64,000 nt of DNA from Escherichia coli (lineage in GTDB: Bacteria > Pseudomonadota > Gammaproteobacteria > Enterobacterales > Enterobacteriaceae). The DNA is taken from assembly GCF_030013205.1 (NCBI RefSeq), contig NZ_CP122648.1; one strand, 5' to 3'. The position numbers are program-made. This document shows, piece by piece, positions 52,961-55,900 of this stretch (the stretch's first letter is position 1; every line of letters begins with the position of its first letter).

Positions 52961-55900
52961 TAGTAGAGTAAGTAACTGGTTAATTTACATTCTGGTCGCG
53001 TGCGCAAATACGCTTTTCCTCACACAGTTGTCAAGTGTTACGTTTAGATAATTGCTATCCGGAAAAGCATCTGCTATTTATAGCGGCCTCATTTTTCCCC
53101 CGAACATGGGGATCGATAGTGCGTGTTAAGGAGAAGCAACATGCAAGAAGGGCAAAACCGTAAAACATCGTCCCTGAGTATTCTCGCCATCGCTGGGGTG
53201 GAACCATATCAGGAGAAGCCGGGCGAAGAGTATATGAATGAAGCCCAGCTGGCGCACTTCCGTCGTATTCTGGAAGCATGGCGTAATCAACTCAGGGATG
53301 AAGTCGATCGCACCGTTACACATATGCAGGATGAAGCAGCCAACTTCCCGGACCCGGTAGACCGTGCAGCCCAGGAAGAAGAGTTCAGCCTCGAACTGCG
53401 TAACCGCGATCGCGAGCGTAAGCTGATCAAAAAGATCGAGAAAACGCTGAAAAAAGTGGAAGACGAAGATTTCGGCTACTGCGAATCCTGCGGTGTTGAA
53501 ATTGGTATTCGCCGTCTGGAAGCGCGCCCGACAGCCGATCTGTGCATCGACTGCAAAACGCTGGCTGAAATTCGCGAAAAACAGATGGCTGGCTAATTAC
53601 AGCCGTTCCATCACGTTTACCACAGGCGGGAAATGCTCCCGCCTTATTTTTTGTTCAAAGAGATGACAGACACACACTATATTGGCCGCTTTGCCCCCTC
53701 TCCTTCCGGCGAGCTTCATTTTGGCTCTCTGATTGCCGCGCTTGGCAGCTATTTACAGGCTCGCGCTAGGCAAGGTCGCTGGCTGGTACGCATTGAAGAT
53801 ATCGACCCGCCTCGTGAAGTTCCCGGTGCCGCAGAGACTATCCTGCGCCAGCTGGAACATTACGGTCTGCACTGGGACGGCGACGTTCTCTGGCAATCGC
53901 AACGTCACCACGCCTATCGCGAAGCACTCGCCTGGTTACATGAGCAAGGATTAAGTTATTACTGCACCTGCACGCGTGCGCGTATTCAAAGCATTGGCGG
54001 TATTTACGACGGTCATTGCCGGGAATTACATCATGGACCAGACAACGCCGCAGTACGTATCCGCCAGCAGCATCCGGTCACCCAGTTTACTGACCTGCTG
54101 CGCGGCATTATTCACGCCGACGAAAAACTGGCACGGGAAGATTTTATTATTCATCGCCGTGATGGTTTGTTTGCCTATAACCTGGCGGTGGTGGTGGATG
54201 ATCACTTCCAGGGCGTGAGCGAAATTGTCCGCGGGGCAGATTTGATCGAACCGACAGTGCGGCAAATCTCGCTGTACCAGCTTTTTGGCTGGAAAGTGCC
54301 AGATTACATCCATTTACCGCTGGCGCTTAATCCACAAGGCGCTAAACTTTCCAAGCAGAATCATGCGCCTGCGTTGCCGAAAGGCGATCCACGCCCGGTG
54401 TTAATCGCGGCACTTCATTTTCTGGGTCAGCAGGTAGAAACACACTGGCAGGATTTCAGCGTCGAGCAAATCCTTCAGTCAGCCGTCAAAAACTGGCGGC
54501 TCACCGCCGTGCCTGAGTCGGCAATTGTAAATTCAACATTCTCAAATGCGTCATGCTGAGCTATGATTAGCCGCTATTTTTTTGTCCTGAATGATGTTTG
54601 ACACTACCGAGGTGTACTATTTTTACCCGAGTCGCTAATTTTTGCCGCAAGGTGCTAAGCCGCGAGGAAAGCGAGGCTGAACAGGCAGTCGCCCGTCCAC
54701 AGGTGACGGTGATCCCGCGTGAGCAGCATGCTATTTCCCGCAAAGATATCAGTGAAAATGCCCTGAAGGTAATGTACAGGCTCAATAAAGCGGGATACGA
54801 AGCCTGGCTGGTTGGCGGCGGCGTGCGCGACCTGTTACTTGGCAAAAAGCCGAAAGATTTTGACGTAACCACTAACGCCACGCCTGAGCAGGTGCGCAAA
54901 CTGTTCCGTAACTGCCGCCTGGTGGGTCGCCGTTTCCGTCTGGCTCATGTGATGTTTGGCCCGGAGATTATCGAAGTTGCGACCTTCCGTGGACACCACG
55001 AAGGTAACATCAGCGACCGCACGACCTCCCAACGCGGGCAAAACGGCATGTTGCTGCGCGACAACATTTTCGGCTCCATCGAAGAAGACGCCCAGCGCCG
55101 CGATTTCACTATCAACAGCCTGTATTACAGCGTGGCAGATTTTACCGTCCGTGATTACGTTGGCGGCATGAAGGATCTGAAAGACGGCGTTATCCGTCTG
55201 ATTGGTAACCCGGAAACGCGCTACCGTGAAGATCCGGTACGGATGCTGCGTGCGGTACGTTTTGCCGCCAAATTGGGTATGCGCATCAGCCCGGAAACCG
55301 CAGAACCGATCCCTCGCCTCGCTACCCTGCTGAACGATATCCCACCGGCACGCCTGTTTGAAGAATCGCTTAAACTGCTACAAGCGGGCTACGGTTACGA
55401 AACCTATAAGCTGCTGTGTGAATATCATCTGTTCCAGCCGCTGTTCCCGACCATTACCCGCTACTTCACGGAAAATGGCGACAGCCCGATGGAGCGGATC
55501 ATTGAACAGGTGCTGAAGAATACCGATACGCGTATCCATAACGATATGCGCGTGAACCCGGCGTTCCTGTTTGCCGCCATGTTCTGGTACCCACTGCTGG
55601 AGACGGCACAGAAGATCGCCCAGGAAAGCGGCCTGACCTATCACGAGGCTTTCGCGCTGGCGATGAACGACGTGCTGGACGAAGCCTGCCGTTCACTGGC
55701 GATCCCGAAACGTCTGACGACGTTAACCCGCGATATCTGGCAGTTGCAGTTGCGTATGTCCCGACGTCAGGGTAAACGCGCCTGGAAACTGCTGGAGCAT
55801 CCTAAGTTCCGTGCGGCTTATGACCTGTTGGCCTTGCGAGCTGAAGTTGAACGTAACGCTGAACTGCAGCGTCTTGTGAAATGGTGGGGGGAGTTCCAGG

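Follow-up and report, generated by a model that had tools for sequence, protein, structure and literature searches.

At which codon does translation of pcnB begin? This gene, which encodes poly(A) polymerase I (PAP I), lies on the forward strand of the 64,000-nucleotide stretch of Escherichia coli DNA analyzed here (contig NZ_CP122648.1 of assembly GCF_030013205.1; the window). Its reading frame opens with a TTG and contains an ATG only well inside the protein. PAP I determines how much RNA is polyadenylated at the 3' end, and hence RNA decay and the copy number of ColE1-type plasmids. An earlier reading made without database searches (the sequence-only reading) proposed that translation initiates at a non-canonical AUU and that this keeps the level of PAP I low. 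Annotation, literature, and comparative sequence evidence all agree with this proposal, and thus the AUU is supported. Window positions 54619 to 56016 are in all probability E. coli pcnB, with translation starting at the AUU at 54619. This start has been known since 2002 and is part of the reference annotation, and nothing found here alters the current understanding. The additions made here are modest and consist of comparative numbers and a group of frozen synonymous sites near the start.

Evidence for the AUU codon

The 701 bases around the pcnB start are 100% identical to those of E. coli 7/2, and 5424 of 5426 complete E. coli genomes contain them. The RefSeq coding sequence (CDS) of strain 7/2 begins at locus position 1820, which corresponds to window position 54619. 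The curated gene of K-12 MG1655 (b0143, 157729..159126, 465 amino acids, aa) begins with the ATT at NC_000913.3:159126. Comparison with annotated pcnB starts, which had been suggested as a check by the sequence-only reading, thus leads to the same ATT in both strains. The window and K-12 share the gene itself, its context (dksA-gluQ-pcnB-folK), its annotated start, and its 465-aa length. The segment from 54515 to 54900 is identical to K-12 base for base and spans the promoter-like site, the 5' untranslated region, the Shine-Dalgarno (SD) sequence, the ATT, and the first 94 codons. Because the start region is identical, experiments performed with K-12 apply directly to the window sequence. The two PAP I proteins differ in three residues only (I131V, E343D, and S451T, window versus K-12), none of which is at the start. 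Within the species, 5416 of 5424 complete genomes agree in all of the 66 nt that surround the start. The one variant that was inspected has a change in the spacer only (C54617T), and the RefSeq start in that strain is the same ATT.

Previous studies are in line with this annotation. The limitation of PAP I synthesis by the AUU start of pcnB is credited to Binns and Masters (2002; Mol Microbiol 44:1287) (PMC2939334, PMC3561954, PMC4447247, PMC5499595, and bioRxiv 10.1101/063800). Three of them also report that AUU initiation was demonstrated experimentally for K-12 pcnB (PMC2939334, PMC3561954, and PMC4447247). According to one of the papers, phylogenetic evidence that many Proteobacteria start their PAP I homologues with AUU was noted already in 2002 (PMC3561954). 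The AUU of pcnB is one of only two that are confirmed in E. coli and serves as a textbook case of a gene whose expression is capped by its initiation codon. A literature search for start-site ribosome profiling (retapamulin) of E. coli pcnB gave a Staphylococcus aureus paper only, and a broader search gave nothing specific.

A codon walk was used to examine the frame. It confirmed that the TTG at 54598 opens the pcnB frame and that the ATT at 54619 gives the 465-aa protein. The first in-frame ATG, which had been placed at 54775, was found at 54772-54774; the codon at 54775 is TAC. This ATG is codon 59 of the TTG-opened frame, and it does lie in conserved sequence. Conservation is 97% or higher at residues 32-51 among 80 Enterobacteriaceae species, the set used for all counts at the pcnB start, and the crystal structures 3AQK to 3AQN span residues 28-442. 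The description of the region as having no usable ATG is true as far as it goes, and it is incomplete in that the canonical in-frame GTG codons at 54652, 54703, and 54709 were passed over. The absence of an ATG across 58 codons is not statistically remarkable on its own. The ATT is significant because of its SD sequence, its conservation, and the published experiments.

The SD sequence GAGGUG (54609-54614) can form six Watson-Crick pairs with the 3' end of the 16S rRNA and leaves a 4-nt spacer before the ATT. A strong anti-SD match is found at the ATT only, as all other candidate starts are weaker than -6 kcal/mol (Table 1). A duplex of -9 kcal/mol or better occurs at about 2% of random window positions. 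Both elements are conserved throughout the 80 species. The start position is ATT in all of them, and GAGGTG is invariant at positions -10 to -5, with a spacer that is variable in sequence and constant in length. Five nucleotide sites are variable in codons 2-11, and all five are synonymous third positions, an outcome expected with a probability of about 0.4% if codon position were irrelevant. The seven codons 5' of the ATT vary non-synonymously and encode many different peptides. Protein-coding constraint in pcnB therefore starts at the ATT. The NCBIfam equivalog model for PcnB, NF008634, likewise starts with the first residue of the protein made from the ATT. Taken with the RefSeq start and the K-12 literature, these comparative tests, which favor the ATT over TTG, GTG, and ATG, bear out the proposal of AUU initiation and a low level of PAP I. 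None of the results places initiation at the TTG or at the first ATG, the two outcomes that the sequence-only reading had named as refuting it.

Table 1. Features of the pcnB region in the window, with product length and best SD:anti-SD duplex for each candidate start
Feature	Position	Strand	Product (aa)	Duplex (kcal/mol)	Basis or remark
TAAACT, matching the pS2 -10 element, inside gluQ	54343..54348	+			hexamer seen in sequence
Sigma-70-type promoter-like site TTCTCA-17 nt-TATGAT	54539..54567	+			sole promoter-like match in 54250-54850
In-frame TGA closing the pcnB frame upstream	54592..54594	+			codon walk
In-frame TTG, old 472-aa start, rival	54598..54600	+	472	-0.9	7 codons 5' of ATT; codon walk
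Shine-Dalgarno GAGGTG	54609..54614	+			followed by 4-nt spacer 54615-54618
pcnB CDS, PAP I	54619..56016	+	465		465 codons + TGA; NF008634, Pfam
ATT (AUU) initiation codon of pcnB	54619..54621	+	465	-9.8	RefSeq CDS start, conservation, literature
Codons 2-10 (FTRVANFCR), near-invariant nucleotide stretch	54622..54648	+			synonymous codon entropy
In-frame GTG, codon 12, rival start	54652..54654	+	454	-1.6	codon walk; choice of many automatic gene callers
Further in-frame GTG	54703	+		-4.5	codon walk
Further in-frame GTG	54709	+		-5.8	codon walk
First in-frame ATG, residue 52 of the 465-aa protein	54772..54774	+	414	-3.9	codon walk
pcnB stop TGA	56014..56016	+			codon walk

Rival start codons and more distant relatives

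Some observations weigh against the AUU as the start, or as the only start, and these are connected to three other codons of the frame. The first is the TTG at 54598. Under an older annotation, translation begins at this canonical codon and the ATT is an ordinary internal isoleucine codon. The chance that this is correct is practically negligible. The TTG is the first canonical start past the in-frame stop, and public databases contain 472-aa PcnB products, among them a large Salmonella cluster with ATG at the same position. In addition, one paper gives the pcnB start as 'UUG' in its introduction and as 'AUU' in its discussion, and describes the ribosome binding site as 'poor' (PMC3561954). 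This description disagrees with the strong and fully conserved SD sequence computed here. The word 'poor' may have been meant for the older UUG model, or else for the whole site.

The TTG itself has no SD sequence. The only one in the region, GAGGTG, lies 3' of the TTG and is therefore unable to serve it. Seven codons upstream of the ATT, TTG is present in 26 of the 80 species and ATG in two, both Salmonella subspecies. In 43 species, the stretch from the upstream stop to the ATT is free of canonical starts (ATG, GTG, or TTG), and five have an in-frame stop inside the seven-codon interval. The peptides that the interval would encode include LTLPRCT, KHTTRCT, and TR*PRCN, among others. Both RefSeq and the NCBIfam model begin at the ATT and not at the TTG, and the literature assigns the start to AUU.

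The second codon is the GTG at 54652 (codon 12). If translation began there, the conserved sequence upstream would be a non-coding RNA element. This GTG is conserved in all 80 species, and approximately 32 of the 120 closest protein clusters start at it (MLSREE); products of 454 aa are frequent in the protein database. The near-invariance of codons 1-9 at the nucleotide level is a further point in its favor, as this could also result from an RNA-level constraint. Coding and RNA-level constraint are thus not fully separable within the Enterobacteriaceae alone. A GTG start is nevertheless very improbable. It is without an SD sequence, and the five variable sites in codons 2-11, which lie 5' of it, are the synonymous third positions described above. 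The curated family model takes in residues 1-11, and in one distant relative (L084) codon 12 is GTC and not GTG.

The more distant relatives bear directly on this point. Representatives at 46-67% identity were obtained through a search of the whole library, and the DNA of their loci was compared. Five of these, at 54-67% identity, have ATT (four) or ATC (one) at the homologous position. The arrangement is GAGGTG-TACC-ATT in L085 (67%), GAGGTG-TATT-ATT in L087 (62%), GAGGTG-TCCT-ATT in L084 (61%; a 1.08-Mb genome), and GAGGAT-N6-ATT in L089 (55%). The ATC is found in L086 (54%), which has a clearly homologous N-terminal peptide and no canonical start upstream. In all five, the N-terminal peptide is kept with conservative substitutions despite many nucleotide changes (for example, IRRVIELCKKVI). 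This pattern speaks for translation of the peptide and, with that, against a start at GTG codon 12. Canonical codons are found in the remaining representatives, GTG in L088 (49%) and ATG in L090 (46%) and L091 (54%). The non-canonical start of pcnB is thus old and has been maintained in the clade nearest to E. coli without being universal, in agreement with the literature.

In L091, a metagenome relative, the ATG is followed directly by ATT-TTC (positions 76-84, ATG-ATT-TTC, M-I-F). It is tempting to speculate from this single case that such an arrangement was the ancestral state, which is plausible, and that the ATT would have become the start once the ATG was lost.

The third codon is the ATG at 54772. 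It could possibly serve for a 414-aa isoform made besides the AUU protein, under particular stress conditions, from a transcript of the sigma-S promoter pS1 within the CDS. Promoter pS1 is active in vitro and, under special conditions, in vivo. Published Western blots show two anti-PAP I bands, and an SD-like AAGG is present just 5' of the ATG (PMC2939334). Synonymous variation is also reduced at codons 36-46, just upstream. Such an isoform is nonetheless unlikely, and its own authors termed it unproven (PMC2939334). The ATG is present in only 23 of the 80 species, with a Leu codon elsewhere, and its SD pairing is weak and badly spaced. Missing from the isoform would be residues 28-51, a highly conserved segment that belongs to the crystallized enzyme. 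Because the ATG is residue 52 and the structures begin at residue 28, a start there would remove conserved, folded sequence. Liu and Parkinson are said to have originally proposed this ATG as the pcnB start in 1989.

The codon of residue 29 (54703-54705) is ATG in 72 of the 80 species, ATT in four, GTG in three (non-coli Escherichia loci, as in the window), and GTA in one. The crystallized PAP I construct begins at residue 28. Met29 was considered as a conserved internal start and rejected, as its codon is inconsistent, it has no good SD sequence in E. coli, and a start there would delete the conserved N-terminal peptide.

The initiation region and the limitation of PAP I synthesis

With the AUU taken as the start, the codons that follow it were found to be frozen to an unusual degree. 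Across the 80 species, synonymous codon entropy over the first nine codons (the ATT and codons 2-9) is 0.048 bits, as compared with 0.95 on average for the gene, and no other of the 439 sliding windows is as low. The first nine codons of folK, used as a control in the same genomes, do not exhibit a 5' effect (1.10 versus 1.18, rank 53 of 144). The simplest reading is that the output of the initiation region depends on its exact context, and that stabilizing selection acts on this region. It is also conceivable, though doubtful, that the block made up of the SD sequence, the AUU, and the first nine codons (approximately 54609-54648) is a discrete cis-regulatory RNA element that couples PAP I synthesis to growth rate. 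A protein or small RNA (sRNA) may bind to such a block, or the block may provide the context that sets the sensitivity of AUU initiation to initiation factor 3 (IF3) or guanosine tetraphosphate (ppGpp). The block is known from its conservation only; it has no significant structure and no Rfam match, and the invariance is lost in more distant relatives.

A second patch of low synonymous variation is present at codons 36-46 (54724-54756), where the entropy of a 15-codon window is 0.44 versus the gene mean of 0.95. Codons 41-43 (CGC AAA GAT) are invariant in the 80 species. This patch lies just 5' of the non-conserved ATG at 54772, where the literature places promoter pS1.

RNA folding was also explored. 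In four species, the initiation region has less predicted structure than shuffled sequences (z of +1.4 to +1.8). A predicted hairpin that pairs the SD sequence with codons 2-4 has an energy of -4.7 kcal/mol and was matched or beaten by 53 of 200 shuffles. A permissive Rfam search of 54300-54900 did not return a match. A structured regulatory element at the pcnB start was thus unsupported, as the hairpin is no better than shuffles and the region is under-structured.

These features can be combined into a possible mechanism for the low output of pcnB. The strong and invariant SD sequence, with its 4-nt spacer, would position the 30S subunit on a poorly structured region, so that the ribosome may be recruited efficiently while selection of the start codon is inefficient. 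IF3 discriminates against AUU and other non-canonical start codons. AUU would pair imperfectly with initiator tRNA and be rejected by IF3 as near-cognate, and few initiations would succeed. That IF3 discrimination acts on pcnB specifically is probable in view of the established role of this factor. PAP I output would be low as a result, and it might vary with IF3, ppGpp, or growth rate. Reporters that start with AUU yield approximately 1-2% of what is obtained with AUG. A cell contains 30-50 molecules of PAP I, and a raised level is toxic or lethal (PMC3561954). By holding the enzyme at a few tens of molecules, the cell would avoid harm from excess polyadenylation.

In E. coli, AUU initiation is confirmed for only one other gene, infC, which encodes IF3 (bioRxiv 10.1101/063800, PMC5499595, and PMC4447247), and AUU limits the expression of both genes (PMC4447247). 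The two differ in that infC is autoregulated and its product is the discriminating factor itself, whereas pcnB encodes an unrelated enzyme. Any dependence of pcnB on IF3 would thus act in one direction only, without feedback. A rare ATT start also attenuates a protein whose level matters in Enterococcus faecalis, the pilus tip protein encoded by ebpA (PMC4447247). However, ebpA is an unrelated gene from an unrelated organism and has no sequence relationship to pcnB.

Promoter elements upstream of the start were explored as well. Of 79 species, 69 have the -10 hexamer TATGAT, and in 67 of those TTCTCA is found 17 nt upstream. We would guess that this site is a candidate for pB, the published major pcnB promoter. 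Transcription is predicted to start at about 54574, and therefore both the TTG and the ATT would be on the mRNA. The sigma-S promoter pS2 has the -10 element TAAACT and starts at -263 to -265 from the ATT, or approximately window positions 54354-54356 (PMC2939334). A matching hexamer is found in the window (Table 1).

Database annotation, gene identity, and neighboring features

The start of PcnB is not handled uniformly in databases. Among the 120 closest protein clusters (90% identity, P0001-P0120), 51 begin at the ATT and, beside the group at GTG codon 12, approximately 22 begin at an ATG near codon 19 and 11 begin seven codons upstream of the ATT. More than half of these clusters thus begin at the wrong codon (GTG codon 12, ATG codon 19, or TTG/ATG at -7). 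Recognition of the GAGGTG-N4-ATT signature during annotation prevents truncation or extension of PcnB.

Salmonella enterica subsp. diarizonae and arizonae (L022 and L023) have an ATG at codon -7 where E. coli has TTG. The large NCBI/UniRef cluster of Salmonella PcnB (P0013) is 472 aa long from this ATG, and another Salmonella entry is 465 aa long. No obvious SD sequence is seen upstream of the Salmonella ATG, and the GAGGTG-N4-ATT signature is intact.

The identity of the gene is clear from its protein. The NCBIfam model NF008634 matches the window PcnB with 995 bits against a cut-off of 702, aligning residues 1-464 with profile positions 1-468 of 469. The Pfam domains PF01743 (residues 62-193), PF12627 (220-280), and PF12626 (338-457) follow one another, and the head domain, RNA-binding region, and arginine-rich C-terminus are present in that order. 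Models for CCA-adding enzymes score far under their cut-offs. The protein is nearly identical to the solved PAP I structures. With three substitutions in 465 residues relative to the characterized K-12 enzyme, it can be expected to possess poly(A) polymerase activity.

The genes dksA, gluQ, pcnB, and folK follow each other on the forward strand. The stop codon of pcnB shares bases with the folK start in an ATGA (56013-56016), which suggests translational coupling of the two genes. Of 71 related species, 39 start folK with ATG and 30 with GTG. The start of gluQ differs between records, as the curated K-12 protein has 308 aa (ATG at 53633) and the Prokaryotic Genome Annotation Pipeline (PGAP) gives 298 aa in the window-matching strain (53663). 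Elsewhere in the window, Rfam matches over the gathering score were identified on the reverse strand for CssrA sRNA (23901-24010), t44 RNA (24849-24935), and the HtrA 5' untranslated region thermometer (33093-33138). All three are expected for this region of E. coli.

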